DNA of 64,000 nucleotides from an uncultured bacterium (GCA_964472395.1 CAYYMM010000007.1:1911-65910); one strand, 5' to 3'; counted from the first letter of the stretch, positions 11,948-64,000 are shown. Notes: generated from the letters alone by a model not told the origin. Program-made: numbers and translations.

Positions 11948-12299
11948 GCGATTCCCTTCCCGTGTCTGACCGGTACTCAACCGGGCAGCTTCGTCATTCA
12001 AATCTACGGAAGCTCGAGAGTGGAACTCAAGAGTTGTGCCGCGATTCACGAAGAACTCATGTTATACTGATATAGTCTGAATCCACCCTTCGCGCGTTTC
12101 AAAAGGTTTAAAACGAATCGATAACAGTAATCGGCTCTCAATCAGGAGTGACTGATGAAGCATATTATCCTAAAATGCATGAATCATCGTTAAACTGGAT
12201 CAGAACATAAACTCTGAGTCTCAAGAGAAGCGTTACGTATCAAAATGTTGACTGTTCCAGATGCGTTTGAATACAATAAACTAAACGAACGGAGGTAGA

Positions 12300-18548: not shown

Positions 18549-19031
18549 ATGATCACCTTGAAGAGTTTATCTCGCCCGGCAGCGCTTCTCGGCTGGGTCG
18601 TCGTTCTCGGCGCATTCTTCGCTCAGGTCGAAATCCAGATCGAAGGTTCGGCGGGCTGGGCCGCGAATCTGCCCACCTGGCGTATCGACGACTCGTGGCT
18701 CAATGCGCTCTGGGGAGGCAAAACCATCACGGGATACCATGTCTGGGTCTTCGCCTTCGTCGCTCTCGCGTTTCACCTCCCGGTCTTCATGCTCAGCACC
18801 TGGTCCGCGAAACTGGAAGCCCGGATCATCGGCTCGATCATGGTATTCTGGATTGCGGAAGACTTCCTATGGTTCGTGTTCAACCCCTCATTCGGACTGA
18901 CTCTCTTCTCCCCCGCTCATGTTCCATGGCACAAATTCTGGTTCTTCGGGATCCCGATCGATTACATTCTCTCCCTGTTGTTCGGATTTATATTACTCAC
19001 CTGGTCCTACAGGAAAGGAATTCCGTCATGA
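18549..19031 (+). CDS. Small integral membrane protein (4 predicted TM helices)
   Basis: Hydrophobic segments LLGWVVVLGAFFA, HVWVFAFVALAFHLPVFMLS, IIGSIMVFWIAEDFLWFVF and LSLLFGFILLTW. It ends 1-3 nt from the GT28 gene start. Confidence 0.45.
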   Translation: MITLKSLSRPAALLGWVVVLGAFFAQVEIQIEGSAGWAANLPTWRIDDSWLNALWGGKTITGYHVWVFAFVALAFHLPVFMLSTWSAKLEARIIGSIMVFWIAEDFLWFVFNPSFGLTLFSPAHVPWHKFWFFGIPIDYILSLLFGFILLTWSYRKGIPS

Positions 19032-45946: not shown

Positions 45947-46129
45947 ATGTGGAGACCATCATTCGGCGAAATCTTACTGATACTGGCAATCGTGATCATG
46001 ATCTTCGGAGTCAAACGGTTACCCGAAATCGGAACCAGCATCGGGCAGGCATTTAAAAACCTGAAAAAATCTCTTTCGGAAGACGATAAACCCAAGCTCC
46101 CGCCTTCCGATGAACAGCCGAAGCAGTAA
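45947..46129 (+). CDS. tatA: Twin-arginine translocase subunit TatA/E
   Basis: MWRPSFGEILLILAIVIMIFGVKRLPEIGTSIGQAFKNLKKS (TM helix + amphipathic helix with FG hinge). Confidence 0.8.
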   Translation: MWRPSFGEILLILAIVIMIFGVKRLPEIGTSIGQAFKNLKKSLSEDDKPKLPPSDEQPKQ

Positions 46130-46179
46130 TCGCCCATCTTCGCCTGTCCGGCACGACATGATGTGCGAAGTCTGTCAAC

Positions 46180-46893
46180 TCATTTGAGGGTTTGTTTGAT
46201 CTGCTGGAGTTCTTTGTGCAGCTGAATCATTCCCAGAATGGTGCGATAGACGGCCGAGGGTTTGACAGTAGTCTGACCGGCATGACGCGGCAGGTGCGTG
46301 ACACCGATTTCTTTGACTCTGAATCCATACACGACCGCCTTGGCCATGATTTCCGTATCCACCATGAAGTGCTCCGACTTGATCTTGATCCTGTCGAACA
46401 CTTCCCTGCGGAAAAATTTGAACGCACAATCCACATCCCGAACCGTGAATTTAAACACCGCGTGAGACATCAGATTGAAACAACGGGAGACGAATTTACG
46501 GATCCATGGATCCTGGCGATCTTTCCGATATCCCACCACCAGATCGAAATCCCGAGTGTACGGCAACAATAGATCGATCTCATCCAGCTTGAACTGGCAG
46601 TCGGAATCCGAGTAAAAGATCAGGGATTTTTTTGCGTTCGTGAAACCGGTCCGCAGAGCTGCCGTATAGCCGCGGTTGGGTGTATGCGTATAGACGACAA
46701 GATTGGCGTATTGCGTCTGAAGTCGCCTCAACACGTTCGCTGTGTCATCCAGCGAGCCATCATCCACGACGATGATCTCGTAATCGGACGAAACCTTGCG
46801 AACCGCCGCATCGGCCTCGGCAAGCAATCGATCCAGGTTGTCCTGTTCGTTGTATGCCGGAAAAACCATTGAGATCGAGTAATCAGAGTTCAT
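46180..46893 (-). CDS. GT2-family glycosyltransferase, polyprenol-phosphate sugar synthase (DPM1/GtrB-like, soluble)
   Basis: ISMVFPAYNEQDNLDRLL...YEIIVVDDGSLDDT (DxD region) and a typical GT-A core. Start chosen at MNSDYS (ORF track extends to 47004). Confidence 0.75.
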   Translation of the reverse strand: MNSDYSISMVFPAYNEQDNLDRLLAEADAAVRKVSSDYEIIVVDDGSLDDTANVLRRLQTQYANLVVYTHTPNRGYTAALRTGFTNAKKSLIFYSDSDCQFKLDEIDLLLPYTRDFDLVVGYRKDRQDPWIRKFVSRCFNLMSHAVFKFTVRDVDCAFKFFRREVFDRIKIKSEHFMVDTEIMAKAVVYGFRVKEIGVTHLPRHAGQTTVKPSAVYRTILGMIQLHKELQQIKQTLK

Positions 46894-46970
46894 AAACACC
46901 TCGTTGTGAATGTCTCTGGCTCCTTCATTATACATCTTTCGGCGTGGCGAACCATAGAAATCTCCCGGAT

Positions 46971-47579
46971 TCAGTCCTTTTTCCGGCAAACCACCATTGT
47001 CCATGGAAACGGTCTGAGCACCACCGCGATACGGAAGTATTCGTCGAGCAACCGGAGAATTCCGCGGCGGGACCAGTGCTGGACATGTCCGGGTGTGTTA
47101 CCAAGATCCCGGATATAGCGCCCCGAGATCACATTACCGATCCTCCAGACCGGTTCCCATGGTACGCTGATGATAAAATCCCGGCGACCAACACGCGCGA
47201 GCTCCTCCAAACCGGCTCGGATATCCGTGAGATGTTCGAGCACTTCGAGTGCCAGAACCAGGTCGTAACTCCTGTCGCGAAACGGGACAGCCCCGCACGA
47301 TGCCTGAGTAAAACACGATGCCTGCGCCCGATTCATGGCCCGTTTCAGTTCCTCAAATCCCAGATCCAACCCGCATGCGACAGGCATCGGCTTCCATCTC
47401 CGCCTCACACGCTCCAGCATGACTCCGTCTCCACATCCGATCTCAAGGACGGAACGCGGAGGCGCGATGACATGCGTCGCCTGGTCGAACGCGTTGAGAA
47501 ATCCGGTCATGAGCCATTTCGTCACCGGGTTATTCGAATCGTATTTATTGTATTGATTGCCCAAAGGAACCCGGTTCAT
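46971..47579 (-). CDS. Class I SAM-dependent methyltransferase
   Basis: VLEIGCGDGVMLERV (motif I); YDLVLALEVLEHL. Confidence 0.7.
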   Translation of the reverse strand: MNRVPLGNQYNKYDSNNPVTKWLMTGFLNAFDQATHVIAPPRSVLEIGCGDGVMLERVRRRWKPMPVACGLDLGFEELKRAMNRAQASCFTQASCGAVPFRDRSYDLVLALEVLEHLTDIRAGLEELARVGRRDFIISVPWEPVWRIGNVISGRYIRDLGNTPGHVQHWSRRGILRLLDEYFRIAVVLRPFPWTMVVCRKKD

Positions 47580-49087
47580 CCCGTGTGCCCCCCTTCCCCA
47601 TCAGTCGATCTATCACAACACGTTTCAGGAAGATCCGCACTGGAGTGAAGCATGGCACGAATACCGAAAAGATGCCTCCAGGCGATTTCCTTCGTGATGA
47701 TCAACACGAGACTGTACACCATCACCATGAGCGGTACGGCCGCCGCAAGCTTCAGATAACCCCTCAACGGCAGAAAGAATCCCACCGCATAGACAGACGC
47801 ACCTGCCATACAGGTGTTGATCCACGTCGAGAACCTGACGAGTGTGAAACCGGAATTTCTGAGATCTCGGAAGGCCATCATCATACCGATCAACCAGAAC
47901 ACACCCGCACCGATCGCCGCGCCTTCGATGCCGTACTCCGGAACCAGGACCGTCAACCCGCCGACTTCCAATCCGATCGTCAGAAGGGCTGTGCGGATGG
48001 ATCGTGACGGCAGGCCGCTTCCGGTTAGAAGGATGAACGAGATAAACATCATCGAGTAGAACACCTCGCCGATTGGCAGGATTCTGAGCGCGTACCGTCC
48101 CTCCCAGTACGCGTGCGGATAGACCAGTTGAAGCAACTCGGGTGCAAGCGCTGCGATTCCGGTCGCGATCAGGCAACTGTACAACAAGGTGACTCTCAGA
48201 ATCCGCTCGGCACGCAGTGCTGTTTTCCGGGTATCCCTTTCCATTCGACTTGATGAAATGAGAGGGAAGGCCACAAGTCCAATTGCGACGACGCAGATAT
48301 ATGGGATTCTGGAAAAAGTCTGAGCCGCCGTGTAAAAACCTGCCGATTCTCCCGAATACGCCGCCGGCATCAGGGCTTTGACTGCAAATAGATCGAGATT
48401 GAGCAGCAGATTGTTGAACAGTGTGATCAGCATCGTCGCACACTGAAAGTTGATCAGAATCCGGCAGGAGAACATACTCCCGATGGTGCGCGCCGGTACC
48501 TTTGATAACACCATGAATCCGATGCTGATGATGACCAGGGATGCGATCAGGTATCCCAGAAATGCCCCGGGCACTCCTTCGCCGAAAAACGCGAATGCCA
48601 GAACAAGAATCGTTTTCAGGAGTGCAAACGAAACATCCAGCGCTGACTGACGAGCAAACAGCCTCCGACCGTTTAACTCCCCCATCACGACACCATACAA
48701 TGCATACACGCATGGCAATAATGCACCGATCCGGATCAGACGTACCAGGCCGGGATCCTTCAAAACACCCGCGATCCAAGGTGCGGTCAGAATGATGGCG
48801 GCACAGAGAACCCAACCGAATCCGAATTGGAAGAACAACGCCGTACGGCGAATACTGGATTCCGAATACTCACCGGACGACACGAATCGCGAAATCGCCT
48901 GGATCGTGCCAACGATGACGGTCATGTTGAAAACATTGAGATATCCGAGAGCGACACCGAACTGACCAAATGCCGATGGTTCGTTCAGAATCCGAGGAAG
49001 GAAAAAGTAGATGGCGTATCCGGAAAGCATGAAGGCCAGTTTGGCCGCGGATAATGCGAGGAACCCGGAAGCTGCCGATTTCATCAT
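47576..49087 (-). CDS. Polysaccharide biosynthesis protein / MOP-superfamily (Wzx/MurJ-like) flippase
   Basis: 503 aa with ~12-14 hydrophobic helices and a MOP-like N-terminus. Confidence 0.65.
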   Translation of the reverse strand: MMKSAASGFLALSAAKLAFMLSGYAIYFFLPRILNEPSAFGQFGVALGYLNVFNMTVIVGTIQAISRFVSSGEYSESSIRRTALFFQFGFGWVLCAAIILTAPWIAGVLKDPGLVRLIRIGALLPCVYALYGVVMGELNGRRLFARQSALDVSFALLKTILVLAFAFFGEGVPGAFLGYLIASLVIISIGFMVLSKVPARTIGSMFSCRILINFQCATMLITLFNNLLLNLDLFAVKALMPAAYSGESAGFYTAAQTFSRIPYICVVAIGLVAFPLISSSRMERDTRKTALRAERILRVTLLYSCLIATGIAALAPELLQLVYPHAYWEGRYALRILPIGEVFYSMMFISFILLTGSGLPSRSIRTALLTIGLEVGGLTVLVPEYGIEGAAIGAGVFWLIGMMMAFRDLRNSGFTLVRFSTWINTCMAGASVYAVGFFLPLRGYLKLAAAVPLMVMVYSLVLIITKEIAWRHLFGIRAMLHSSADLPETCCDRSTDGEGGHTG

Positions 49088-49124
49088 TCAGTCAGCGGAT
49101 CCAACTCGATTCGAGGGCATCCGG

Positions 49125-51755
49125 TCATTGGGAAAACGATGACGGGAAGAGATGAAAACAACTCTCCGGCGCTCCGTCGAGAACAACCATGCACAGTTCG
49201 AGTGGTCCTTTCACCGGGAGACGACCCGGTTCGATCTCGAGCAGAAAACTTCCCGGCACCGATGGCGAATCATCCTCCGGGATAAACACAAGCTGTGCCC
49301 CGTCACCTTTCCATGTCGATTGTGTCGGCACCTGTTTATAATTGATCGGAATGCTGATCCGACCATTCACCCAGAGTTCAGCCGAGAGTTCGGTCCCGGA
49401 GAATGCCCCGGAAAACGTGATTTTCGCAGTGGCATTCGCCTCGATGTTCTCTGTTTTCCAACAGAACGTATCGACATCGTCGCCCTGACAAACCCGGTGC
49501 TCCGTTATGAGTTTCTGATCATCTCCGCCTGCATCGCTCGCATCGGGTTGTGTTGCCCTGCCGGCTATTGCACGAATCCGGGTCAGATCGAAATCCGCCG
49601 GTTGATGGCTCTGCTGGTGCTCCAACTCGATGCTTCTGCCTTCCGTGTCGATCAGGCGGAGCGTGAAGTACCAATCTCCGACCCCCTCACATGATCTCAC
49701 GAATACCTGATTCCACCCTTCCACAAGGACACAATCCCTTGTATCGACACGTGTCGACTGGAGGACGGTCTTTTCAAGAACCACTTGCCCGTTGATGGTG
49801 ATTTCGAATGGGTCGGGTGACCCGAAGACTTCAATCCGCGCGTGCTGAGTCTGCGAACTCTGGATATATGTGCAGGCCTTGCCGCAGCATTCCTCGGGAT
49901 TGTTCTGCGTTTGCGGGTCCTTTCGGGCAAAGAAACCGTTCAAATCCACGTTGATGAACTGATTGTCCATTCGCTGCCATTGGATCGGCCCATGCATTCC
50001 GTCATACTTCCGATCGGGATCGGTTGAATAATCTGGTTCCGATTGCACGAAAAATTCCTCGCGCGGGGTTCCGAACAACCCGAGAGCGCTCCATTCCGTC
50101 AGGAACTGTTTTCTCTTTTTCAGATCGATGATGACAAACTCGGTGACTCCATCGGGACCGATGATTTCCTTCTTGACGTCATACTCCTCGAAGTAATTCA
50201 CCTCATTGGGTCGAACTGCGAACAGAGTGGGTTTTTCGACATCATATCGTCTGAATTCATCCGGTTTGAACTCCTGATAGCCGGTTCTGCGACCGTTGAC
50301 CCAATCATTTGGATCTTTCCGGGTGTAGAACAGCGCAAAGATGTACGGCATGTTGACATCGGTGGCAGTCAGGAAGCGTTGAGGATAGTCATCCTTTACA
50401 GATTCCATGTATTCATACAGTTCGCGATACCCATACTGGAAGCCGTAAATACCTCGGGCGGATTGTTTATAGTAACTGCCGTAATACCGAGTCTGGTACG
50501 CTCGTACGTCGCGCACGACGCAGACCAGAAGGAAGCCGGTCAGAGACAAACCGATGAGGATTGCGAGCCATCGCCAGCGGATGCGCATGATCCAGGACAA
50601 CGCGGTTACACAGGTGAATGCACCCAGAATTGCGGGCAGGGGGCTGCCGATGATCGAACGGGTCGCCGACATTTCCTCGTGCATCAGCGCCGCCCCTATG
50701 GGAAATGTCATCAGCCACCATAGCATCATCAATCGGAAACGAGACGGCGTCCAGGAAATCAGTCCGAGACCGCCAAGGATAAGTGGAAAGAATGACCAGT
50801 ACAGCTCCCCATGACCACTGACTGAATGACGGATCAGCGGATCACCCGTACGAAAAAGAAAATCAACCCCGTAGTAACCCTGGTAGTTTTTCAGGAAGAT
50901 GTCTGCTTTTTCCTTGAGGGGTTTGTCTTGAATGACCCACGAGTTCCGTTTGAAATACTGGTCTGTGCGAGGTTTTGTCAGGTTGAAGTGGACGAATGGG
51001 GCCACAGTAAGAAGGATGATCACGATTCCGGAGAAAAAGCTGAGTTTATGTTTGAGGATATCCTTGAAAAATAGAACGAAAACTCCTCCTAGGAAAAGCG
51101 GCACAAAGAGATTCGCGATCGCGTAACTGTATGGAGTCAACCCGAAAAGGAACATGGCAACTGCCCAGTTGAAGCCTCCCCGACGAATGGCACGAACTAG
51201 AAAAACCATTCCGATCATGAACAGACATGGAAACGAGATCAACTCAAAGGCGATGCGACTCATATGGATATGCCAAGGGGTTACAGCCAGAAAAAAACTG
51301 CCGAAAAGGGCTGCTGTCGCGCCCCACAACTCATTGATCATCCAGAATAGCGCCAGGACTGTGATCCATCCGAACAACACGCTCGTGAGTCGAAGCGACA
51401 TTTCAGATAGACCAAACACCTTGATCGGGAACATCGCGGCATATATAAAAACCGGGTTCTTGTAGCTGACGAACGACCATGAGAACAACGGCCATCGAAC
51501 ACCGTTCTCATCGATTCCGTAGTTTGCGAGTGCAAATGCGTTGTACCCCAGTCCGGCTTCATCGCAATACAATCCGGCGGGGACATCACCGACTCTGTAG
51601 AAGCGAATGCCGAAGGCGAGTGCGGCAATCAGGATCAAGAAGAACCAGTGACATGGCCGAAGACGACGACTGAAAATCAGACTCGCATCCGCGTCAACGT
51701 CCGCACCGAGCTGATCGAGATATTCTTGCGGAGGAGTTGTATCGATCGCTTGCAT
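49125..51755 (-). CDS. GT-C-fold glycosyltransferase (ArnT/PMT, GT39/GT83-like) with large C-terminal periplasmic domain
   Basis: First-loop motif FYRVGDVPAGLYCDEAGLGYNAFALANYGIDENG; multi-TM N-terminal half; ~450-aa soluble C-terminus. Start chosen at MQAIDT (ORF track extends to 51872). Confidence 0.65.
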   Translation of the reverse strand: MQAIDTTPPQEYLDQLGADVDADASLIFSRRLRPCHWFFLILIAALAFGIRFYRVGDVPAGLYCDEAGLGYNAFALANYGIDENGVRWPLFSWSFVSYKNPVFIYAAMFPIKVFGLSEMSLRLTSVLFGWITVLALFWMINELWGATAALFGSFFLAVTPWHIHMSRIAFELISFPCLFMIGMVFLVRAIRRGGFNWAVAMFLFGLTPYSYAIANLFVPLFLGGVFVLFFKDILKHKLSFFSGIVIILLTVAPFVHFNLTKPRTDQYFKRNSWVIQDKPLKEKADIFLKNYQGYYGVDFLFRTGDPLIRHSVSGHGELYWSFFPLILGGLGLISWTPSRFRLMMLWWLMTFPIGAALMHEEMSATRSIIGSPLPAILGAFTCVTALSWIMRIRWRWLAILIGLSLTGFLLVCVVRDVRAYQTRYYGSYYKQSARGIYGFQYGYRELYEYMESVKDDYPQRFLTATDVNMPYIFALFYTRKDPNDWVNGRRTGYQEFKPDEFRRYDVEKPTLFAVRPNEVNYFEEYDVKKEIIGPDGVTEFVIIDLKKRKQFLTEWSALGLFGTPREEFFVQSEPDYSTDPDRKYDGMHGPIQWQRMDNQFINVDLNGFFARKDPQTQNNPEECCGKACTYIQSSQTQHARIEVFGSPDPFEITINGQVVLEKTVLQSTRVDTRDCVLVEGWNQVFVRSCEGVGDWYFTLRLIDTEGRSIELEHQQSHQPADFDLTRIRAIAGRATQPDASDAGGDDQKLITEHRVCQGDDVDTFCWKTENIEANATAKITFSGAFSGTELSAELWVNGRISIPINYKQVPTQSTWKGDGAQLVFIPEDDSPSVPGSFLLEIEPGRLPVKGPLELCMVVLDGAPESCFHLFPSSFSQ

Positions 51756-51970
51756 CTTTGTTTGAGTCTCCACTGTTGTCCTTGATGACCTCCTCAATCG
51801 AAGCAGTAAAAAGCTCGTTAGAATAGCGTACCATACATTTGCTTCGCAATCGACAGCAACGGTATACATCATGTCATTGTTCCGAACTCCGGATTTTTAC
51901 GGCACAAATCCGATGGTTATGCTATTGTGGAATGTCGTCAATGTCTGACTGGAACGCCGAGGGCATTTTC

Positions 51971-52921
51971 ATGAAACTCGTGATCCAAATCCCCTGCTTC
52001 AATGAAGAAGCCAACCTCGCACGCACCATACGCGATCTTCCGGATCGGATCGATGGGATCGATTCGATCGAGATTCTGGTGATCGATGATGGATCGACAG
52101 ATCGCACGATTTCGGTTGCGCGCGAGTCAGGTGTGCATCACGTCCTCCCACTCAACTCACATCTCGGACTCGCCCGTGCATTTTCGGAGGGAATCCGGTA
52201 TAGCATCTATCAACTTCAGGCCGACATCATCGTCAACACCGACGCCGACAACCAGTATCAGGCAAGCTTCATTCCGGATCTGATCCGGCCCATCATGGAC
52301 AACATCGCGGATATCGCAGTCGGATGTCGACCGATTCATCGAATCCCGCATTTTTCAACCAGCAAAAAGCTCCTTCAGAAAACCGGAAGTGCCCTGGTCC
52401 GATTCCTGACCGGTTTCAAGGTAGATGATGCGGCCTCGGGATTTCGGGCTTACAACCGTCGCGCGGCACGACGCATCAAGATCGTTTCGGATTTCACTTA
52501 CACGATCGAATCGCTGATTCAGGCCAGCCGAAGTGGCTTTCGCTTGAGGTCCGTTCCGATCGAGATCAATCCGCCCGTTCGCCCGAGCCGCTTGTTTCGA
52601 GGAGCATTTGGATACATTACCCGGCAGATCATGACCATGTTACGAATTTGGGCACTTTACAGCCCTGTCAAGCTGTTCGTCCGCACCGGTGTTCTCAGCC
52701 TGGTATTGGGAAGCGGGCTTCTCCTTCGCTTTGTCTATTATTACCTCATTTCCTGGCCGGAACCATCCGGCAAAGTTCAATCGCTCATCATCTCCAGTGT
52801 GTTTTTGATGTTTGGGCTGTTCCTGGTCCTGATCGGAGTCATTGCCGATCTGCTCGCGGTCAATCGCAGACTGACCGAGGAAGTGATTGATCGGCTGGAC
52901 GAGATTGATTTCAAGGAATGA
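51971..52921 (+). CDS. GT2-family polyprenol-phosphate glycosyltransferase (ArnC/GtrB-like, with 2 C-terminal TM helices)
   Basis: MKLVIQIPCFNEEANLARTI...ILVIDDGSTDRT...DADNQY, and C-terminal TM helices (VLSLVLGSGLLL..., FLMFGLFLVLIGVIADLLAV). Confidence 0.8.
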   Translation: MKLVIQIPCFNEEANLARTIRDLPDRIDGIDSIEILVIDDGSTDRTISVARESGVHHVLPLNSHLGLARAFSEGIRYSIYQLQADIIVNTDADNQYQASFIPDLIRPIMDNIADIAVGCRPIHRIPHFSTSKKLLQKTGSALVRFLTGFKVDDAASGFRAYNRRAARRIKIVSDFTYTIESLIQASRSGFRLRSVPIEINPPVRPSRLFRGAFGYITRQIMTMLRIWALYSPVKLFVRTGVLSLVLGSGLLLRFVYYYLISWPEPSGKVQSLIISSVFLMFGLFLVLIGVIADLLAVNRRLTEEVIDRLDEIDFKE

Positions 52922-55899: not shown

Positions 55900-58800
55900 T
55901 CATGTGGCGGTGTGTTTCGACGACTAGGATAGACCCGTCAGGCAGAACCGAGAGTCCCATGGGAAGTGTCAGGCGACGTCCATCCGGTCGCTGATCGACC
56001 GTTTTCAGCAGAGTTCCGTTCCGATCTGTGACATACAAGCGATTGGCGTTGGGATCAGATATCCAAACCTGATCTTGCTGATCGACGACGATGTATGGTT
56101 CGACGAACACGTTTCCCTCCCAACCATTAACAGGCCATTCCCGGAGGTAGTTCAATTCCGAATCGAACACTTGAACACGTCTGTTCTTTGCGTCATTCAC
56201 GAACACCTCACCTTTACTCACACAAATACCGATCGGTTCGACAAACTGGGACGGTCCCTTTCCCAGGGTTCCGATACTTTTAACGAGCTTACCCTGAGTG
56301 GTGAGTTTGACGATTCGGTTGCGTCCTGAATCCGCGACATACAAAAAGCCGTTTCCGTCGGCTGTCAATCCTCTCGGATAGAAGAAAGCGCCGTCGGCAT
56401 CACGCCATTCGCTTATATACTGACCATCATGATCGTATTTCTGGATTCGATTGTTAAATGTATCAAGAACATAAACACCAGCCTTGTCGACGGCAATATC
56501 ACACAGATCGTTGAATCCTTTGTCCTCTTCCGATATCGGACTTTCCCATAAGAAGAGAAAGTTACCCAGATTATCGAATTTCTGCACGCGGTGATTTCGG
56601 AAATCTGCGATGTAAACGAATCCTTCGGAGTCGACATCGAGCGATCGGGGTTCACGGAACTGACCTCTCGCTTCTCCCTCACCACCTTGATACATCGTTC
56701 GCGGCGGGCTGTTTCGGATCTGTTCGATCCGGGCGAGTTCCGCCTGTCGTTCCTGCTCGATACGATCGGCCTCCTCCTGGATCAGACGCTGTTGCAGTTC
56801 GGCAAGTGCGTCATTCCCCGAGGCGACCTTCGCGAAATCCACATTGATACCGTAGTCATTTACCTGATAGATGATCACTTCACTGTTCGCGTAGACCGGA
56901 GTCATGTAGTCGGTCAGTTCACTAAATTTATTCAGTCCGGTCTCCGAGTACTGCTTCCGCTCGGTCTTGCCTACAAAAATCAGGTTGACATTGTAGTTCC
57001 GCAGATGTTCGAGTACCAGAGGGATGTCGAGGCTGTCATAAATTGTCTTGATCCCAATCTTGATGCGACCTGTATCGCGTTTATACTCCCGTTGATCCAC
57101 ATGGCTCCACCAACCGAGCACAGTCGGGATCCCCGTATTTGCCGAAATCCGTCCGAACTCGTACAGGTAATCCGCGCCCGTCGCCTCAAGAATCACTGCA
57201 TCGGATGGAGCATTTCTGCTCAACCACTCGATCGCTCTGTATTCCTGCTGCAATCGCCCAGTTTTCATATAGGCGTGACCATCGAGTGTAAGAGGAAGTT
57301 TCTCACGCGCGTATTCATCATGATGACGTCGGGCATACGGTCCCATAACTGTGAAGATCAGCGCTGAACCTAGAAAGAAAAGAAATACAAGATTCCACGC
57401 CCATCCTGCGGCGCGATGCCGCAAACCGGATCGGGTCGCCGCGAACATTCGCACCCGGCGTCTGACACCAACGAGATATGATGCGACAAGAGCGAAGAAG
57501 AACCAGGCCTGCATGTAGAATTTGAATATCGTGTTGAACCGTCGATGATCACCACCCTGATAGAAATCCTTTATGTAAACGATTTCACATCCGGCGGTAA
57601 TCGCGAATGCCATGAACGATATTAGGTAGACAAATCGTCGATCCCCATCCTGCAGTTCTTTTGAACCGAGATACACGATCAGACCGATCATCCCAAGGCT
57701 GTACAGAAAAACGGAATAGTCGATCTTCAAGAAGAAGAGACCGCCGAGCAACATGACGATCAAAATGGCCACGTACGAGAATCCGATGCCGAACACCCGC
57801 ATCAGCGACCGACCTCGACCTCGTTCATATCCGATCCAGATCTTGATTAGAATTGTAGTCAGAATAAACAGGTAGAAACCGAACATGGTGAAAAAGCCAT
57901 CGAAATTCGTCGTTTGTTTATGCTCGAACAGAAAGCCGATTCCCATGTCCTTGCGGGAGAAATGCATCAGATACGGGAGATACAGAGCAATGCTGACGCC
58001 GATCAGAATCAACCATGGGAGGAGAATCTGAGAAAAATTGCGCTTGATGGGTATTGCACCCAGGAGATGGCTGATCATGGAGACCGTATCACGGAAAAAC
58101 GCAACAGGGAATCGTAATCCGCGACGGGCTTTGGTGGGAACAGGTTGAGGAAACTCCTCGACCGGAGCGAGCGCAAGAATTTCCTGCTCCATTCGATCCG
58201 GAATCTGATCAGACTCCTCGGGTTGATCGGTATCATTAACCGGGTTGACCGGTTCCGTGCCCGGAGCTACGGTAACAATCTCTTGAACCTCAACAGGTTC
58301 GATCGCAAGCGGAATAGCCTCTTCACAAACAGTCTGAGTCCGATTTTCGAGTTCGACTGTCTCAACGGATGCCGGTGTCGCCGCGGTTATGGGTATGATC
58401 TCCTCGACAAGTGAAGATTCAGGTGTTGCTGCAGCAGGAGGCAACTCTTCGGAAGTAACCGGTTCAGGCAGCGGTTCAATCGGAAGTTCGGCGGATTTCC
58501 GATATTCGACTTTCGTGGAACGCGGCCAGAAGAACATGAGAATCAGGAGTACCAGAAGCAGGTAAGTGGGGTAATCCCAGCTGTTCGTTGGAATCATGGC
58601 GCCGAATCCGATACCCGCGACCAGAACGGTACACCAGGCTGTGATTCCGGATCCGAAGATACCGCTTTGATTGATCTTGTTTCTGTAAAAGACGAATACG
58701 AGTGCCAGGCAGAACGTTGCGATGAACGTAGCGATGGTGTGTGCGTGCAGATCCATGAAATTATAGCTCCAGAATGGAAATTCATGGACCGTCGGATTGA

Positions 58801-61486
58801 TTAGCTCATGAGCGGATCTGAAGAAACGGAATTGGGAGGCGGGACGCCCCAGCATGAAAAATAGATCTGTTACCCACTCGAGACCTCGGGCAAGATCCCA
58901 GTAAGGTGTGGTTTTCGCGTTATTCACAAAAATCCGCACAATTTGAACCAGGCCATCGAGATTCCCGACCAGGATCGTGATGATTACACAGAGACATCCG
59001 ATCCACATTCTTCGGGTCAGAGTGATGGCAATCGAGGCGATCGAAAGCGCGACGAACGTCGGGATCGTCGCGAAAAACAGGTTGTAACCGTAACGCGCTT
59101 CGACTCCAGTGAACTTGGTGAGAAAGCCGGCGAGGTACTGACCGAAGTAATAGTAGTTGATTCCCTCCCCCTCGATCCATGGATCGATCGGCGGGAAATA
59201 ATCAGTCCGGAGCACGGCATTCATGAAGCCGAAGTCCATTGAACTTTCGCTCCAGAAGATATCTGGATTGTAGCTTTTCAACAGAAGGAAAATCGTCAGG
59301 ACAGAAAAGAAGAGGAGTTCATACCCGAGAACCGACCACCATCTTTCACGCCAGAATTGCCGGATCTCGCTGCGGTGACGCACCAGAAGCAGTCCATTTA
59401 AGACAGCCACCACAGTGATGACCAGCCAGATTAGTGTCTGGGAAAACGGGAATATTCTCAGGCTCGCAATCAACCAAGTGAGGTAACCCACCACCAGAAG
59501 GCCACCGGCTTTAGCAAGCGGATAGCCGGCATGTGGAAACCGGTGAAAGATGACAAACATGAGTGGGAAGACGACGAAACCAATAAGTTCAACGGCTAGA
59601 ATCCATCGAACAACGGGGAAATTGACTCGTGACCCGATTCGATCCACCGGTTCCATCGTCAGAATGTCTTCATAGGACAACTGCTTGATTTCAGGAGGTG
59701 GAGAAACGAGATATGTCAGGATCTGTTCCTTGGTCAAAACGCTCTGCTTGACAAAAACAGCCACCTTCGGATGCTCATACACCGAAAAACTCTCATCGGC
59801 AGTCTCATCCCGAAACACCATTCGACCCAGTCGTGGCGGATTTGAAAACGAGGCGGCATATCTGAAACCCAATTTTTCGGAGAACAACGCTCGATAGAAG
59901 TTGTTTGATATGGGATATCGGTCTGGTACCCGGAGAACAGACCCATAATGGCGTTTGGACGGCAAGATGATGACATCTCCTTCGGTAAGGATTTCGGCCA
60001 TCTTCGATGCTTTCTGCGCGTTATCCGGTTCCTGGTAAATCTCCAGTTTTTTCTGCTCGCCATATCGCGTCGAGTTACCCTCATCCGTGCCGATCGGCAG
60101 GCTATCATCCCAACCGCTTTCGAGCACGATTCGAGCGCCGGCGGGGATATTCTTGTACACCCAGTTGGAGGCCTCAACCCGAGTATCCGTACGGTTGTAT
60201 ACATTCAGGAACGCCAGTGCCCACAGAGCGGTCAGCCCGACAACAAGGGTCGTTGCAGCTCTGCCCCATACCCTCCCGATCTGTTTGTTGATGCCATGAA
60301 GCCATTTCGCTGCGAATATGCAGAAAAATGGTAACAGCGGCAATGTATATCGGAGAAACTTTACCTCGAACGTGCTATTGAGAATGAACAGAGGAACAAC
60401 CCAGATCAGGATGATTCGATTTCCGATATCGAGCGGCTTTTTGAAAAACCGCGCGATCGCATAAGCGAATCCGACAAATGCAGCGATTCCCAGGGGGATT
60501 CCCACCGACCAAAGCACCATGTTTTCGATCAGATACAGAAAAGGCGTCGTGTGCGCATACTGGATGGTATACGGCAACCGAACCTTTCCCGACACCATGT
60601 TGGCCTGTTCACGCACATCACGCAACCAGGTTCCGTGATCAAGAATCCAATAGGGCATGCATATGGACATGACAACGACGGAAAACACCAGGGCCAGCCC
60701 CCAGTGCATCTGGTGCGATAAACTTCTGCGGCGCTTTTCCAGCATGGCGATGAGGTGAGCGAATCCGTACACGAGATAGATTGGCAGGCTACTGAACTTG
60801 GTCGCCATCGCAAAGCCGATGAACAAAGCCGAGTAATAGTAATCTCGGTACTTTTCACCTAAACTGGCTCGAACCGCATAGTAAATCGCACATGTGATAA
60901 AAAATGTTTGGATTCCGTCCACGATATAGAAGTGAGCCTGCTGGATCGAAAGTACCGTCAGGGCGAAGAGGAGTGCGGCGAGAAGTGCCGTTTTTCGGTT
61001 GTACAAGAGTTGCGCCAAATGAAATATTACAATGATTGTCAATGTCGAAAACAAAGCAGACAAGAAACGCCCCGTCAGAGTCCTTTGCTTCAAATCGTTC
61101 ATGTTCGGAAAGTAATTGCGTATGTCATCCATCCATGCAGGGCTCAACTTCAGTGCACTCGCCAGATTGACCACATTTCGATTCACCCAGCCGACGGTTT
61201 CCGTCGTGCCTCTCAGAAGATAAATCGGCAGCGAACCATAGGCGAAGAAGTGTGGATTCATGTCTGAGAGACTGATATCCCCTGTTTTGTACATGACCTG
61301 TCGTTCGTCTGGATGGAAGTAGTGAGGCATACCCCAGTTTATTCCGTACAGGCGGAAGAACAAGCCGATGCACACGATCAGGAACAATGCCCAGTTGCGG
61401 CCTCGCGGGCGAGAGAAATGGAGTGATGAGCGGTAGGATTCCATCCTCTTAACCCTCCTTGGATGGCCGGTTTTCAGAGAATTCAT
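55871..61486 (-). CDS. Giant 1871-aa membrane protein: ArnT-like GT-C domain + Chlor_Arch_YYY (DUF2298)-like GT-C domain + coiled coil + C-terminal NHL beta-propeller
   Basis: N-terminal first loop GMPHYFHPDERQVMYK; middle domain FGFMNAVLRTDYFPPIDPWIEGEGINYYYFGQY, paralogous to the 784-aa protein; acidic/Pro linker; coiled coil LAELQQRLIQEEADRIEQERQAELARIEQ; NHL repeats (YIADFRNHRVQKF, VLDTFNNRIQKY, YVADSGRNRIVKL). Confidence 0.7.
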   Translation of the reverse strand: MNSLKTGHPRRVKRMESYRSSLHFSRPRGRNWALFLIVCIGLFFRLYGINWGMPHYFHPDERQVMYKTGDISLSDMNPHFFAYGSLPIYLLRGTTETVGWVNRNVVNLASALKLSPAWMDDIRNYFPNMNDLKQRTLTGRFLSALFSTLTIIVIFHLAQLLYNRKTALLAALLFALTVLSIQQAHFYIVDGIQTFFITCAIYYAVRASLGEKYRDYYYSALFIGFAMATKFSSLPIYLVYGFAHLIAMLEKRRRSLSHQMHWGLALVFSVVVMSICMPYWILDHGTWLRDVREQANMVSGKVRLPYTIQYAHTTPFLYLIENMVLWSVGIPLGIAAFVGFAYAIARFFKKPLDIGNRIILIWVVPLFILNSTFEVKFLRYTLPLLPFFCIFAAKWLHGINKQIGRVWGRAATTLVVGLTALWALAFLNVYNRTDTRVEASNWVYKNIPAGARIVLESGWDDSLPIGTDEGNSTRYGEQKKLEIYQEPDNAQKASKMAEILTEGDVIILPSKRHYGSVLRVPDRYPISNNFYRALFSEKLGFRYAASFSNPPRLGRMVFRDETADESFSVYEHPKVAVFVKQSVLTKEQILTYLVSPPPEIKQLSYEDILTMEPVDRIGSRVNFPVVRWILAVELIGFVVFPLMFVIFHRFPHAGYPLAKAGGLLVVGYLTWLIASLRIFPFSQTLIWLVITVVAVLNGLLLVRHRSEIRQFWRERWWSVLGYELLFFSVLTIFLLLKSYNPDIFWSESSMDFGFMNAVLRTDYFPPIDPWIEGEGINYYYFGQYLAGFLTKFTGVEARYGYNLFFATIPTFVALSIASIAITLTRRMWIGCLCVIITILVGNLDGLVQIVRIFVNNAKTTPYWDLARGLEWVTDLFFMLGRPASQFRFFRSAHELINPTVHEFPFWSYNFMDLHAHTIATFIATFCLALVFVFYRNKINQSGIFGSGITAWCTVLVAGIGFGAMIPTNSWDYPTYLLLVLLILMFFWPRSTKVEYRKSAELPIEPLPEPVTSEELPPAAATPESSLVEEIIPITAATPASVETVELENRTQTVCEEAIPLAIEPVEVQEIVTVAPGTEPVNPVNDTDQPEESDQIPDRMEQEILALAPVEEFPQPVPTKARRGLRFPVAFFRDTVSMISHLLGAIPIKRNFSQILLPWLILIGVSIALYLPYLMHFSRKDMGIGFLFEHKQTTNFDGFFTMFGFYLFILTTILIKIWIGYERGRGRSLMRVFGIGFSYVAILIVMLLGGLFFLKIDYSVFLYSLGMIGLIVYLGSKELQDGDRRFVYLISFMAFAITAGCEIVYIKDFYQGGDHRRFNTIFKFYMQAWFFFALVASYLVGVRRRVRMFAATRSGLRHRAAGWAWNLVFLFFLGSALIFTVMGPYARRHHDEYAREKLPLTLDGHAYMKTGRLQQEYRAIEWLSRNAPSDAVILEATGADYLYEFGRISANTGIPTVLGWWSHVDQREYKRDTGRIKIGIKTIYDSLDIPLVLEHLRNYNVNLIFVGKTERKQYSETGLNKFSELTDYMTPVYANSEVIIYQVNDYGINVDFAKVASGNDALAELQQRLIQEEADRIEQERQAELARIEQIRNSPPRTMYQGGEGEARGQFREPRSLDVDSEGFVYIADFRNHRVQKFDNLGNFLFLWESPISEEDKGFNDLCDIAVDKAGVYVLDTFNNRIQKYDHDGQYISEWRDADGAFFYPRGLTADGNGFLYVADSGRNRIVKLTTQGKLVKSIGTLGKGPSQFVEPIGICVSKGEVFVNDAKNRRVQVFDSELNYLREWPVNGWEGNVFVEPYIVVDQQDQVWISDPNANRLYVTDRNGTLLKTVDQRPDGRRLTLPMGLSVLPDGSILVVETHRHMITKIPNPPR

Positions 61487-63803
61487 ACAAAGCGGTCTTT
61501 TTCCCGTCGGCGTCGGTCAATTCGATCACTTTTTTCATGAAACCTTCGAACTTCTGGACATTCGCCTGCGGGTACTGTTCGCGTTCCAATCCTCCGTAAA
61601 AGATATATCGAATACCCCATTTCCGGATGAGCTGTGTTGCCTTCGTGATATCGGTTGTTGTGTAAATCTCTTTGGTATCATTGACCCGCTCACTGATCTG
61701 GTTCCATGCGCCGCGCCGCCAGATGTTTTCATGATTGGCCCATCCCAGCAATGTGCTCATACCGGTCGCAGCCGAAATTCGACCGTAATGTGAAAACGCC
61801 GGTCCGGTTGCCTCGAGTACGGTATCCGACGGCTTCCCGTTTTTTTTCAGATACTGAATCGCCTGGTAATCTCCGGGAAAACGCCACGACATGTAATAAA
61901 TCCCCTCCATCGTGACCTTCGCATACTGATTAGAAGGTTTGAAGGCAGCGAAGTGGTCGCATTTTACGGTAGTTCCCAGGATGGGAAACGCAAGCGTGAA
62001 TAGAAAGAGTATCCGGAAGGAGGTTTCCCAAAGATCCGTCCACCACGCCTTCACATGCTCTCGTATCCAGTACACACCATACAGGGACGACAATCCACAG
62101 AAGATCCATGCCTGATAATAAAACTTGAAGATTGTATTTTGTCGTTCAAGGGTCTTGCCGTAATCATCCTTGAGATAGATGAATTCGCAGCCGAGAAGAA
62201 TGAGCAGAACGACAAACAGCAGCGATAACGCGAAAAACTTGTTCTTCGAATGGATATCGTCATGGTCGAGGGGAACTCGGAGCAACAGAACGAGCAGCAG
62301 GATACATATCGCGATCATCGAGGTTCCAAATGCGACCAGACTGACGATGAAGAGAAAACCGATCGCAGACAGGATCAGGACATTCAATCGGGGCGCGAGC
62401 TCATTGAATCGGGGAACGACGAGAGCGAGAATGAAACTGATCAGACAAAAGAAAAAGAAACCGTAGATGGTGATGAAATCGTCGATGAGAGTTCGCTGCT
62501 CCGGATTGACCAGACGGGGGCCATCGGTCCCTTTAGCATCAAAATTGGCATAGTAGGGGGAGTAGAGCACAAACGAGACGGCGATCAGAGCGACAATGAT
62601 AATCATGGCTGTCGCCCAATTACGCCAGGATTTTTTTAGGGCATTTCCAGGCTTTAGGAGATTCGAGAGTTCGCGGAACGGCGTCAGTAGCATTGCACCG
62701 AATGTCGAAGCGGAAGTTTTAAGAAAAAACTGTCGACCGAACACGAATGTCAGTGTGAGAATGCTATAGTATGTGGGGAGATCCCATGTGTTGGCCGCCG
62801 GGATGGCACCAAGAGCAATCGCAACGAAAAACAGCCGGAAATAGAGATCTCGACCCTTTCCCAAAATGGACAGACCATCCCCCGCGGATCGAAGCACTTC
62901 CAGGGAAATCGCAAGCACAGCGAGAGAAAACGGTACGACATTGACGTGTGCATGTAAATCACCCAGGATGTAACTCCAGAATGGAAACTCATTGATTGTG
63001 ATGTCCACCCCCTCACGCACAATCACTCGAGAACTCATCCACCAGTTGAACCATTGAAACGGATACAACTGACCATTCCCAAACACAACCTTTCCGATTT
63101 GAGTAAACGTCTGAAAGATGGCATCGAGATTTCCGATGAACGCAACGAACATGCCTCCCATGAAAGCGTATCCACGGCGTCCGGTCAGTGCGAACGAAAT
63201 CGAGGTGGCATTTAGAAATGTGATCGCGAACAGAAACGCGATTCCAAGATTGAACGTGAACTCAGGTGCGATTCCCGACAGTTTGCTTAGAAGCGCTATC
63301 TGATAGTGCCCATAGTAGAAATAGTTGATTGTCCCGCCATGATACCAGGTATCTTTCGGCGGAAAATACTCACTGTTCAAAATCGCCGTCAGAAATGCAA
63401 AATCGGGCATCTTCTCTGTCGAGGCGATATCCGGATTGCACATCCGGATGATTCCAAAGAACACAAAACACCCCAGAAATGTCAGTTCAGTGAATAGGAC
63501 ATGTGGGCGGTTTTCTTTGAAATAACGAAGTATCTCCCCGAGGGGTTCCTGCGTCAGGAAATAGGATAGGCAAGCTATAATGACGAGAGTCGTAGCGATC
63601 GAGACAAGAGAGAACGGGAGAATGTGTAAACTGCACAGAATCCAGTTGAAGAAGCAAACTGCCACCAAACCGATCCCTTTTGTCAGAAGATATCCTCGAT
63701 CAGGAAATGACCTGAAAAAGCGTCGGGTCAGAGGCAACGCTAGGAGACCGATGATGCTGATCAACAACCACCAATGAACGATGTACATGATTCCGGAGAT
63801 CAT
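61449..63803 (-). CDS. Chlor_Arch_YYY/DUF2298-like polytopic membrane protein (putative GT-C glycosyltransferase), 784 aa
   Basis: FAFLTAILNSEYFPPKDTWYHGGTINYFYYGHY parallels the middle domain of the 1871-aa protein. There are >15 TM helices, plus a soluble C-terminal domain (YIFYGGLEREQYPQANVQKF) homologous to the corresponding region of the giant protein. Confidence 0.7.
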   Translation of the reverse strand: MISGIMYIVHWWLLISIIGLLALPLTRRFFRSFPDRGYLLTKGIGLVAVCFFNWILCSLHILPFSLVSIATTLVIIACLSYFLTQEPLGEILRYFKENRPHVLFTELTFLGCFVFFGIIRMCNPDIASTEKMPDFAFLTAILNSEYFPPKDTWYHGGTINYFYYGHYQIALLSKLSGIAPEFTFNLGIAFLFAITFLNATSISFALTGRRGYAFMGGMFVAFIGNLDAIFQTFTQIGKVVFGNGQLYPFQWFNWWMSSRVIVREGVDITINEFPFWSYILGDLHAHVNVVPFSLAVLAISLEVLRSAGDGLSILGKGRDLYFRLFFVAIALGAIPAANTWDLPTYYSILTLTFVFGRQFFLKTSASTFGAMLLTPFRELSNLLKPGNALKKSWRNWATAMIIIVALIAVSFVLYSPYYANFDAKGTDGPRLVNPEQRTLIDDFITIYGFFFFCLISFILALVVPRFNELAPRLNVLILSAIGFLFIVSLVAFGTSMIAICILLLVLLLRVPLDHDDIHSKNKFFALSLLFVVLLILLGCEFIYLKDDYGKTLERQNTIFKFYYQAWIFCGLSSLYGVYWIREHVKAWWTDLWETSFRILFLFTLAFPILGTTVKCDHFAAFKPSNQYAKVTMEGIYYMSWRFPGDYQAIQYLKKNGKPSDTVLEATGPAFSHYGRISAATGMSTLLGWANHENIWRRGAWNQISERVNDTKEIYTTTDITKATQLIRKWGIRYIFYGGLEREQYPQANVQKFEGFMKKVIELTDADGKKTALYEFSENRPSKEG

Positions 63804-63863
63804 CGCACCTCCTATGCATCCTGATCGGGTCCGACTGAAGGATCAGAGCGATTCAGAGAAGTC

Positions 63864-64000
63864 TCAGTGCTTTTCTGCGTTGAAAACCTGAACCCGATGA
63901 TTCATCGAATCCACAACGAATACCTTGTTTGACGCGATGGTGACGCCGACCGGATTCTTGAACAGATCCTTTGTCGATCCTTCCTGACCCCAGAACGCCT
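63864..64000 (-). CDS. NHL-repeat protein, C-terminal fragment (gene continues beyond window end)
   Basis: The reverse strand translates ...FVVDSMNHRVQVFNAEKH*, a canonical NHL repeat. Stop at 63864-63866. Confidence 0.55.
   Translation of the reverse strand, partial: AFWGQEGSTKDLFKNPVGVTIASNKVFVVDSMNHRVQVFNAEKH

Follow-up and report, generated by a model that had tools for sequence, protein, structure and literature searches.

A gene cluster from an uncultured bacterium that probably encodes an expanded three-component-type system for extracytoplasmic glycosylation

Between tatA and the end of the window, the stretch of 64,000 nucleotides analysed here, lies a cluster encoding two GT2 enzymes, a class I methyltransferase, a MOP/Wzx-type flippase and five polytopic GT-C proteins. 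The GT-C proteins carry six modules, four of the PMT_2 and two of the DUF2298/Chlor_Arch_YYY family. We consider it probable (roughly 0.72) that these genes form an expanded "three-component"-type system, in which extracytoplasmic glycosylation would draw on lipid-phosphate monosaccharide donors. Domains were called by Pfam and NCBIfam profile searches and the protein structures used are predictions throughout; domain matches so strong and so clustered are far beyond chance. The features are the following.

~45947..46129, + strand: tatA, 60 aa (PF02416 7.9e-13; the ORF has an internal ATG)
46180..46893, - strand: GT2a, soluble DPM1/ArnC-like polyprenyl-phosphate sugar synthase candidate, 237 aa (PF00535 7.9e-24)
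46971..47579, - strand: class I SAM-dependent methyltransferase, cytoplasmic, 202 aa (Methyltransf_11/25/23, 1e-12 to 1e-14)
47576..49087, - strand: MOP-superfamily (Wzx/PST-type) flippase, 503 aa (Polysacc_synt_3 2.5e-22; Polysacc_synt 3.1e-14)
49125..51872, - strand: GT-C (PMT_2) protein, 915-aa ORF (PMT_2 1.5e-10)
51971..52921, + strand: GT2b, membrane-anchored GtrB/DPMS/AglJ-like synthase candidate, 316 aa (PF00535 7.4e-24)
52918..55899, + strand: lipoprotein-type signal, NHL and GT-C (PMT_2), 993 aa (NHL 1.5e-35; PMT_2 borderline)
55871..61486, - strand: tandem GT-C fusion with NHL, 1871 aa (PMT_2 2.2e-14, PMT 9e-11, DUF2298 1.9e-86, NHL 3.6e-26)
61449..63803, - strand: stand-alone DUF2298/Chlor_Arch_YYY protein, 784 aa (DUF2298 5e-102; TIGR03662 2.6e-152)
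63864..64000, - strand: 3' end of the fifth GT-C gene, cut by the window edge (match to the C-terminus of a 983-aa PMT_2+NHL protein)

The interval delimited by an initial annotation of this DNA (46180-64000) holds every ORF named there, and the giant GT-C proteins, which it had counted as four or more, number five with six modules by Pfam and NCBIfam. Its SAM methyltransferase and Wzx/MOP flippase are borne out by the Methyltransf_11/25/23 and Polysacc_synt_3 matches, and the profile searches it had proposed recovered Chlor_Arch_YYY/DUF2298, PMT_2 and NHL. The tatA gene is found upstream, where it had been placed, and is a flank of the cluster, of which it is probably not a member: a 60-aa TatA stands at the matching position in an 88%-identical contig (L001) and was not found at the corresponding position in a more distant relative (L085). 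At the other end, the minus-strand fragment, whose translation ends ...NPVGVTIASNKVFVVDSMNHRVQVFNAEKH*, aligns to the C-terminus of L001:4632-7583, a 983-aa PMT_2+NHL protein, which gives an identity to the further NHL protein described as leaving the window. In L001 this gene ends the cluster and folD adjoins it. Also adjoining the cluster is a gene for a secreted protein of 1514 aa that contains a long linker rich in Pro and Thr. No nucleotide-sugar genes lie in the cluster.

The two synthase candidates, already described as one soluble and one TM-anchored polyprenol-P-sugar GT2, keep these assignments. GT2a is devoid of TM helices and has its best solved relatives in ArnC (9hwj, 2.8e-24), P. 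furiosus DPMS (5mlz, 2.2e-16) and GtrB (5eke, 1.5e-14), while GT2b bears two C-terminal TM helices and is nearest to DPMS (5mlz, 6.2e-13), followed by ArnC and GtrB. In NCBIfam, GT2b has partial matches to AglJ, PpgS and Dol-P-hexose transferase, the archaeal AglJ model being the best, and all matches of both enzymes fall far below the equivalog cut-offs. By homology, the two are putative polyprenyl-phosphate monosaccharide synthases of the GtrB/DPMS/ArnC type. Since the kinship between the two is only distant, each probably makes a donor of its own.

The flippase has at least ten hydrophobic segments, and no ORF for a small GtrA-type flippase was recognised in the cluster. Its substrate is ambiguous, since MOP proteins of the Polysacc_synt type usually flip lipid-PP-oligosaccharides. 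The 202-aa methyltransferase has no TM helix. Methyltransferases adjoin the fusion gene in Binatia and KSB3 as well, yet they are only ~27% identical to the 202-aa enzyme, and orthology between phyla is therefore not supported.

The PMT_2 modules differ widely in how clearly they score. Against a Pfam gathering threshold of 26.1 bits for PMT_2 (PF13231), the 1871-aa protein reaches 54.4 bits (and 42.2 for PF02366), the 915-aa protein 42.0 and the 993-aa protein a borderline 26.2; the 983-aa orthologue on L001 has a precomputed PMT_2 match. No PDB sequence match to the membrane domain was obtained with the family profile of the 915-aa protein or with the 1871-aa fusion searched singly, and the PMT_2 modules of these two proteins are consequently remote members. 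An acidic motif directly follows the first TM helix in each PMT_2 module (HPDE, CDE, HHDES, NNDAAW). HPDE of the 1871-aa fusion (D60/E61) is 99% conserved among 117 homologues, CDE of the 915-aa protein (D104/E105) is invariant, HHDES of the 983-aa protein is kept in five of six orthologues, and the 993-aa protein has a conserved GINNDAAWN motif in the first outer loop of its GT-C module.

Around these modules the architectures vary. The ArnT/PMT-like character given earlier to the 915-aa protein holds (PMT_2 1.5e-10), but its length probably does not: the true start is probably M40 at 51755, giving 876 aa, because a homologue has 878 aa and residues 1-42 are predicted with a pLDDT below 50. 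Its GT-C module is followed by a C-terminal α/β domain and two β-sandwich sugar-binding-like domains. The 993-aa protein, correctly described as NHL plus ArnT-like albeit with that borderline PMT_2 score, opens with a lipobox-compatible N-terminus (...LLIVILTAC) and has a TM helix at 327-345, then a loop with 12 K/R among 37 residues. The 1871-aa protein, with at least 22 hydrophobic segments and 534 homologues at E<=1e-10, contains all three modules ascribed to it, as matched by Pfam and TIGR03662: PMT_2 at ~1-600, DUF2298/YYY at ~620-1540 and, after a helical linker, a C-terminal NHL at ~1590-1871.

The DUF2298 modules are the more clear-cut by profile. With a curated TIGR03662 (Chlor_Arch_YYY) cut-off of 300.25 bits, the 784-aa protein, previously called YYY-like, scores 509 bits (PF10060, 342.8) and the 1871-aa protein 446.7 bits, 1.8e-133 (PF10060, 291.4). 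Both have the YYYxG motif, as INYFYYGHY and INYYYFGQY respectively. Y161 is invariant. E130 and D151 are also invariant, and D134 nearly so, in a loop after helix 99-122; this conserved acidic loop is predicted to face outward. For the 784-aa protein the prediction is a GT-C fold followed by a globular, AglB-like domain at the C-terminus. Predicted structures further show polytopic membrane domains with the conserved GT-C helical core, with conserved acidic residues in the loop, predicted to be extracytoplasmic, that follows the first TM helix of the core. A literature search found no paper on the function of DUF2298.

Fusion of NHL propellers to the giant transferases had been reported for the cluster as a whole; it holds for only three of the five, NHL being absent from those of 915 and 784 aa. 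PF01436 matches the 993-aa protein at 1.5e-35 and the 1871-aa protein at 3.6e-26, with multiple repeats that span a whole six-bladed β-propeller. Over ~260 residues the NHL aligns to Brat, Thin, TRIM2 and TRIM71, with E-values as low as 4.9e-42, and likewise to PknD. The propellers lie outside the cytoplasm, as judged from the lipobox signal ahead of NHL in the 993-aa protein and, in the other two, from its position after an AglB-like periplasmic C-terminal domain. They are 31-35% identical to one another while the PMT_2 modules can barely be aligned among themselves, a pattern that fits shared targeting with different chemistry. In relatives, TPR repeats take the place of NHL at the same C-terminal position, and NHL is plausibly an acceptor-binding module. 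The architecture had been thought uncharacterised, and indeed a literature search found no paper on GT-C+NHL fusions.

From these elements a scheme can be proposed. At the cytoplasmic face, soluble GT2a and membrane-anchored GT2b would transfer monosaccharides from nucleotide sugars onto polyprenyl phosphate, as their homologues suggest, and the MOP transporter would carry to the periplasmic face either these loaded lipids or an acceptor glycan that is itself lipid-linked. There, the six GT-C modules, four very divergent PMT_2 and two DUF2298, would pass sugars to a shared acceptor, as their fold and acidic motifs imply in silico; the tandem PMT_2-DUF2298 protein may perform two consecutive additions. 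The co-encoded DPMS/ArnC/GtrB-like GT2s make lipid-phosphate sugars the candidate donors of these modules. The enzymes would be held on the acceptor by the three NHL propellers, which resemble one another, and by the sugar-binding-like β-sandwiches of the 915-aa protein, and the cytoplasmic methyltransferase might, more speculatively, O-methylate one sugar. Periplasmic glycosylation with lipid-linked donors, the function first suggested for the locus, is supported by profiles, GT2 relatives and gene neighbourhood. As to the acceptor, one in the envelope (a glycan, a glycolipid or the glycan of a glycoprotein) has somewhat less than even odds, Ser/Thr-rich regions in proteins of the envelope or in secreted ones have about one chance in three, and the rest goes to something else.

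The three-component systems (Shigella/Salmonella GtrA/GtrB/Gtr*; Firmicutes CsbB/GtcA/YfhO; C. youngae ORF15/ORF14/ORF12, GT136) have in common with the cluster a polyprenyl-phosphate sugar synthase of the GT2 type, a candidate flippase and an extracytoplasmic GT-C. The C. youngae system resembles the cluster further: besides its synthase it has a flippase of the MOP superfamily (MATE) and a carbohydrate-binding domain (CBM) appended to its GT-C (PMC11127046). Unlike these systems, the cluster has two synthases, six GT-C modules in five proteins, a tandem GT-C polypeptide and NHL propellers, with neither a GtrA-type flippase nor an acceptor pathway alongside, and its DUF2298 modules are not known from any characterised system. 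The S-layer N-glycosylation branch of Haloferax volcanii (AglD, AglR and AglS, with the methyltransferase AglP) likewise combines in a single pathway a GT2 that makes Dol-P-mannose, a protein related to flippases, a methyltransferase and a transferase that faces outward and uses lipid-phosphate-mannose (PMC3871713). That branch, however, adds one terminal sugar to an N-glycan already transferred by AglB, and the cluster contains no oligosaccharyltransferase. Mycobacterial Ppm1 and its GT-Cs (PimE, MptA/B/C, EmbA-C, AftA-D; LM/LAM, arabinogalactan) resemble the cluster in having many GT-Cs that build an extracytoplasmic glycan from polyprenyl-phosphate monosaccharide donors, some very large and with carbohydrate-binding domains. 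AftA, AftB, AftD, PimE and EmbA are among the structural matches of the GT-C modules, at a sequence identity of only 6-12%. The cluster departs from them in that its appended domains are NHL and not CBMs and in its tandem GT-C protein; no DPA pathway (UbiA-type DPPR synthase, DprE1/DprE2) was found in the window or in L001.

The eukaryotic protein O-mannosyltransferases PMT1-4 and TMTC1-4 provide another likeness: they too have a PMT/PMT_2-type GT-C, the first luminal loop of which bears a D-E motif, and their catalytic membrane domain is joined to soluble repeats that would engage the substrate, MIR in PMT and TPR in TMTC. Pmt1, Pmt2 and Pmt4 are strong structural matches of the predicted structures, although the cluster differs from both families in its six-bladed NHL, its bacterial origin and its several co-encoded paralogues with DUF2298. 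A protein O-glycosylation machine of this kind is a tentative alternative, which we regard as possible while favouring others over it taken together. PMT_2 would place the first sugar on Ser/Thr in proteins, periplasmic or secreted, that are unfolded or disordered, DUF2298 would extend it, and NHL would recognise the protein as TPR does in TMTC and MIR in PMT. Such a role agrees with the PMT (PF02366) match of the fusion at 9e-11, with the PMT-like conserved D-E motif, and with an NHL nearest to the protein- and RNA-binding TRIM-NHL domains (4.9e-42 for the 1871-aa protein) and the PknD sensor (3e-13), replaced in relatives by the protein-binding TPR. Bacterial GtrB plus GT-C systems, such as streptococcal GtrB/PgtC2 and PgfS/PgfM1, also act on Ser/Thr-rich disordered regions (PMC12041528). 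The adjoining Pro/Thr-rich protein would fit this reading too, but it has no synteny in other CSSED10-310 genomes; the carbohydrate-binding-like β-sandwiches of the 915-aa enzyme recall the polysaccharide-directed EmbC, AftD and GT136, and six GT-C modules exceed the need of any known protein O-mannosylation system.

The pairing of an ArnC-like GT2a with ArnT-like PMT_2 membrane enzymes recalls ArnC/ArnT; a system of that type would remodel the outer membrane by attaching a sugar to lipid A or to some other membrane lipid. We hold this to be improbable: Ara4N genes (ArnA, ArnB, ArnD or equivalents) are absent from the window and the complete L001 cluster, the transferases are many, and, unlike ArnT, the five GT-C proteins have sizeable periplasmic domains of the propeller and β-sandwich kinds. 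The same gene set moreover occurs in Chloroflexota, many of which have no LPS. It is just as unlikely that some or all GT-C-fold modules are lipid-binding scaffolds like PIG-U and GAB1, with NHL as a lactonase- or lyase-like catalyst on an envelope polymer. The propellers do match the enzyme families SGL lactonase, PAL and Vgb lyase weakly, but their matches to binding-type propellers (4.9e-42) are far stronger, donor-synthase GT2s are co-encoded, and the acidic motifs appear strictly conserved where GT-C catalysts use them. Least likely is a conventional Wzx/Wzy-dependent O-antigen or exopolysaccharide locus, with the MOP protein as repeat-unit flippase and some of the large proteins as polymerase or ligase, which gene content largely refutes: a Polysacc_synt_3 MOP flippase is present and the families of Wzy and of the ligases fall into the same wide class of membrane enzymes, but the cluster has no initiating phosphoglycosyltransferase, Wzy, Wzz, Wza or cytoplasmic GT4/GT1 (Pfam, ~35 larger window ORFs), it has no GTs in the cytoplasm other than the two GT2s of DPMS/ArnC/GtrB type, and the matches of the large proteins are to PMT_2 and GT-C transferases and not to polymerases. 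The same Pfam search of the window's larger ORFs found none of the genes of a standard O-antigen, arabinan or Arn locus; a standard O-antigen or mycobacterial-type arabinan cluster with this exact content had been named as a reason to abandon the initial annotation.

The proposed three-component-type system is also not confined to this genome. Its core set, namely the PMT_2–DUF2298 fusion, a PMT_2–NHL protein and usually a solo DUF2298 protein, recurs in CSSED10-310, Binatia and Chloroflexota, and the neighbourhood, proposed earlier as a check, is conserved across phyla. In Thermoanaerobaculia the fusion and the PMT_2–NHL protein recur; a UbiA gene lies near that locus, beside a phytoene-desaturase-like gene, and is probably unrelated. 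The design of the cluster is widespread among uncultured bacteria.

Between tatA and the end of the window lies a set of genes best read as an expanded glycosylation system of the three-component type. Its gene content, which the initial annotation had read by eye, agrees with the ORF listing, with translation and with Pfam and NCBIfam matches, and tatA was found beside it as described.

Genes of the cluster in the window
about 45947-46129, tatA
46180-46893, minus strand, GT2 glycosyltransferase (GT2a) without TM helices (Pfam, NCBIfam)
46971-47579, minus strand, class I SAM methyltransferase (Pfam, NCBIfam)
47576-49087, minus strand, MOP/Polysacc_synt_3 flippase (Pfam, NCBIfam)
49125-51872, minus strand, PMT_2 protein, 915-aa ORF (Pfam, NCBIfam)
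51971-52921, plus strand, GT2 glycosyltransferase (GT2b) with two C-terminal TM helices
52918-55899, plus strand, NHL+PMT_2 protein, 993 aa (Pfam, NCBIfam)
55871-61486, minus strand, PMT_2+DUF2298+NHL protein, 1871 aa (Pfam, NCBIfam)
61449-63803, minus strand, DUF2298 protein, 784 aa, upstream of the 1871-aa gene
63864-64000, minus strand, 3' end of an NHL protein (translation of the fragment)

The plus-strand genes for GT2b and the 993-aa protein diverge from the minus-strand block running from GT2a to the 915-aa ORF and converge with the 1871-aa gene. The start of the 993-aa gene overlaps GT2b by 4 nt, and its 3' end overlaps that of the 1871-aa gene by 29 nt (55871-55899). The overlap of 38 nt between the 784-aa gene and the start of the 1871-aa gene (61449-61486) suggests either translational coupling or a real start of the 1871-aa protein further downstream; the true start of the 915-aa ORF is probably M40.

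The whole locus was viewed in L001, an 88%-identical ENA contig, where the order is tatA, GT2, methyltransferase, flippase, PMT_2, GT2, NHL-PMT_2, PMT_2-DUF2298-NHL, DUF2298 and PMT_2-NHL (983 aa), followed by folD, purE, engB, clpP and tig. As the fragment at 63864-64000 corresponds to the C-terminal end of that 983-aa protein, the cluster comprises nine genes, with five GT-C proteins carrying six GT-C modules. The fusion of these proteins to NHL propellers, first proposed as a repeated feature, holds for three of the five and fails for the other two. Among named genomes, the closest are MAGs of candidate division CSSED10-310 (52-53% identity in the DUF2298 protein), which have the cluster at the same site by folD, with still more PMT_2-like genes than the window.

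The GC content of the cluster (0.48-0.535 over 46000-64000, against mostly 0.55-0.59 in window positions 1-46000) raised the suspicion of a mobile island. This was rejected because the folD-purE-engB-clpP-tig neighbourhood is kept across the CSSED10-310 phylum, and the low GC probably reflects membrane-protein composition and not recent transfer. The rest of the window holds housekeeping genes and transporters, among them a TonB-dependent receptor (14385-16382), and the host is therefore probably diderm. Just upstream of the receptor is a 569-aa ORF without a Pfam match (12300-14009, plus strand), and the lowest GC of the window (0.459) falls at 12001-14000. A glycolipid glycosyltransferase resembling MGDG synthase (18695-20140, plus strand) and a methyltransferase-domain protein of 443 aa (24414-25745, minus strand) have no link to the cluster.

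By their PMT_2 and PMT matches, four of the modules are remote members of the ArnT/PMT-like group. Of the membrane domains compared with the PDB, that of the 1871-aa fusion gave no match by sequence and that of the 915-aa family none by profile, and for DUF2298 both sequence and profile searches of the PDB returned only noise (TIM, E about 0.2). Since hhalign aligned DUF2298 with the PMT_2 module at a probability of only 16%, kinship between the two rests on fold, and homology at the sequence level is not established. The predicted model of DUF2298, built from 61 sequences, is of high confidence (pLDDT 94.9, pTM 0.95), and two structure-comparison methods place it among GT-C transferases. Foldseek, independently, ranked DPY19 and AglB on top (E 4e-8 to 1e-5) and transporters at a probability below 0.15 only, so that the assignment of the membrane domains to GT-C stood and the alternative that they are transporters was not borne out. 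The structural matches also include PIG-U and GAB1, two non-transferases of GT-C fold, so that the fold is by itself no proof of catalysis.

All PMT_2 modules carry an acidic motif directly after the first TM helix. The fusion protein has it as HPDE, kept in 99% of 117 homologues, and the 915-aa family as CDE, without exception in 56 sequences; the 983-aa type has HHDES and the 993-aa type GINNDAAWN. Eighteen residues of DUF2298 are invariant, including E130, D151 (PPxDPW), the YYY tyrosine Y161, E272 (INEFPF) and D282/H284/H286 (GDLHAH), and D134 is nearly invariant; the first invariant group sits in the loop that follows helix 99-122, and by the positive-inside pattern this loop is predicted to lie outside the cytoplasm. 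In the 993-aa protein, a lipoprotein-type signal (…LLIVILTAC) is followed by NHL, a TM helix and then a loop in which 12 of 37 residues are K/R, an order that makes its propeller periplasmic. The 1871-aa and 983-aa proteins have NHL after the periplasmic C-terminal domain, with no later TM helix.

True six-bladed propellers, the NHL domains most resemble TRIM-NHL (4.9e-42) and also the PknD sensor. They share 31-35% identity with one another, whereas the four PMT_2 modules can hardly be aligned in any pairing; identity between the two DUF2298 modules is 30%. From this difference we read the propellers as a putative common targeting device and the transferase modules as catalysts of different chemistries.

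The best solved relatives of GT2a and GT2b are P. furiosus DPMS, ArnC and GtrB, all makers of lipid-phosphate monosaccharides. NCBIfam matches to ArnC, AglJ, PpgS, Dol-P-hexose transferase and PgfS all score far under the equivalog thresholds, so the donor sugars cannot be named. In Binatia and KSB3, methyltransferase genes recur beside that of the fusion protein; a conserved methyltransferase partner across phyla was considered, and orthology is not claimed, as these enzymes are only about 27% identical to that of the window.

Wzx/Wzy, Arn or arabinan-type systems were weighed as other identities for the cluster, and its gene content speaks against all three. In the expanded three-component reading, the two synthases would make polyprenyl-phosphate sugars on the cytoplasmic face, and the MOP transporter would flip these or a lipid-linked acceptor. 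Six GT-C modules facing the periplasm would then glycosylate one shared acceptor, with the NHL propellers and sugar-binding-like β-sandwiches holding it in place, and the methyltransferase may act on one of the sugars. Precedents for such a lipid-phosphate-donor design are found in C. youngae, where a synthase works with a MATE flippase and a CBM-bearing GT-C protein (PMC11127046), in AglD, AglR, AglS and AglP of Haloferax (PMC3871713) and in streptococcal GtrB/PgtC2 and PgfS/PgfM1, which act on Ser/Thr-rich regions (PMC12041528).

As to the nature of the acceptor, the β-sandwiches favour a glycan, and the NHL or TPR domains together with the PMT-like D-E motif favour a protein. Adjoining tatA and the cluster, a gene at 41281-45825 (plus strand) encodes a 1514-aa secreted protein with a HEWGH metalloprotease-like motif, weak InhA-MAM and PepSY matches and, toward the C-terminus, a long Pro/Thr-rich linker. 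Such linkers are often O-glycosylated. This protein was rejected as a dedicated acceptor, being without synteny in other CSSED10-310 genomes.

Homologues of the tandem PMT_2-DUF2298 architecture number 534 (E<=1e-10), measuring about 1600-2150 aa with NHL and about 1350-1450 aa without it (e.g. KSB3). A Binatia locus holds DUF2298, a methyltransferase, PMT-DUF2298-NHL and PMT_2-NHL, and in Thermoanaerobaculia the genes for the last two architectures are adjacent. A Chloroflexia MAG locus (L074, 12638-19527) contains PMT_2-DUF2298, DUF2298 and PMT_2, then an ECF sigma factor with a zf-HC2 anti-sigma, PMT_2-NHL and, directly downstream, PGM/PMM, which hints at envelope-stress regulation and hexose-phosphate supply. 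Around DUF2298 genes, PMT_2 matches occur in 31 and NHL matches in 24 of 88 loci. A DUF2298 profile search retrieved 11,208 cluster representatives (50% identity) among 1.84 billion. Giant DUF2298 proteins of 2050-2700 aa (P0361, P0363, P0367 and P0408) combine PMT_2 with two DUF2298 modules, two DUF2298 modules with TPR, or PMT_2, DUF2298 and TPR, with TPR at the C-terminal position that NHL has in the window's protein. Close to the Binatia locus are a fragment of the exosortase EpsH and an ABC exporter (L086, 3281-5718), and close to the KSB3 locus is a PEP-CTERM-domain protein (L088, 565-2007). These neighbours may indicate a tie to exosortase-sorted surface proteins, which are often glycosylated.

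GT-C enzymes make or decorate important structures of the cell surface (N-glycans, O-mannose, lipid A modifications, mycobacterial arabinan and teichoic acid sugars), and the logic of a lipid-phosphate donor with a GT-C transferase is well established and is not a new principle. The new elements are the assignment of a fold to DUF2298, a polypeptide with GT-C modules in tandem, the fusions to propellers and a gene set that recurs across phyla. DUF2298 is a large family without, to our knowledge, a known function; a full-text literature search gave two papers that mention it, neither of them evidently about its function judging from title and abstract, and nothing was found on TIGR03662, PF10060 or GT-C proteins with NHL. 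We tentatively propose, at roughly three chances in ten, that DUF2298 is a true glycosyltransferase founding a new CAZy GT-C family and that the conserved set of tandem, PMT_2-NHL and solo DUF2298 proteins forms an unrecognised assembly line for an envelope glycan. If so, this glycan would be built stepwise outside the cytoplasm from polyprenyl-phosphate monosaccharides, with NHL propellers (TPR in relatives) docking the enzymes on one common scaffold, in a system common to Chloroflexota, Binatota, Acidobacteriota, CSSED10-310 and others. It would also provide the first example of a single polypeptide with two catalytic GT-C modules.

The occurrence of the DUF2298-PMT_2 tandem fusion, with NHL or TPR, in several poorly known phyla points to a widespread and unstudied envelope glycoconjugate. 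Its confirmation would add a glycosyltransferase family and a bifunctional GT-C enzyme of a new type, and would open a way into the surface chemistry of Chloroflexota and several candidate phyla.
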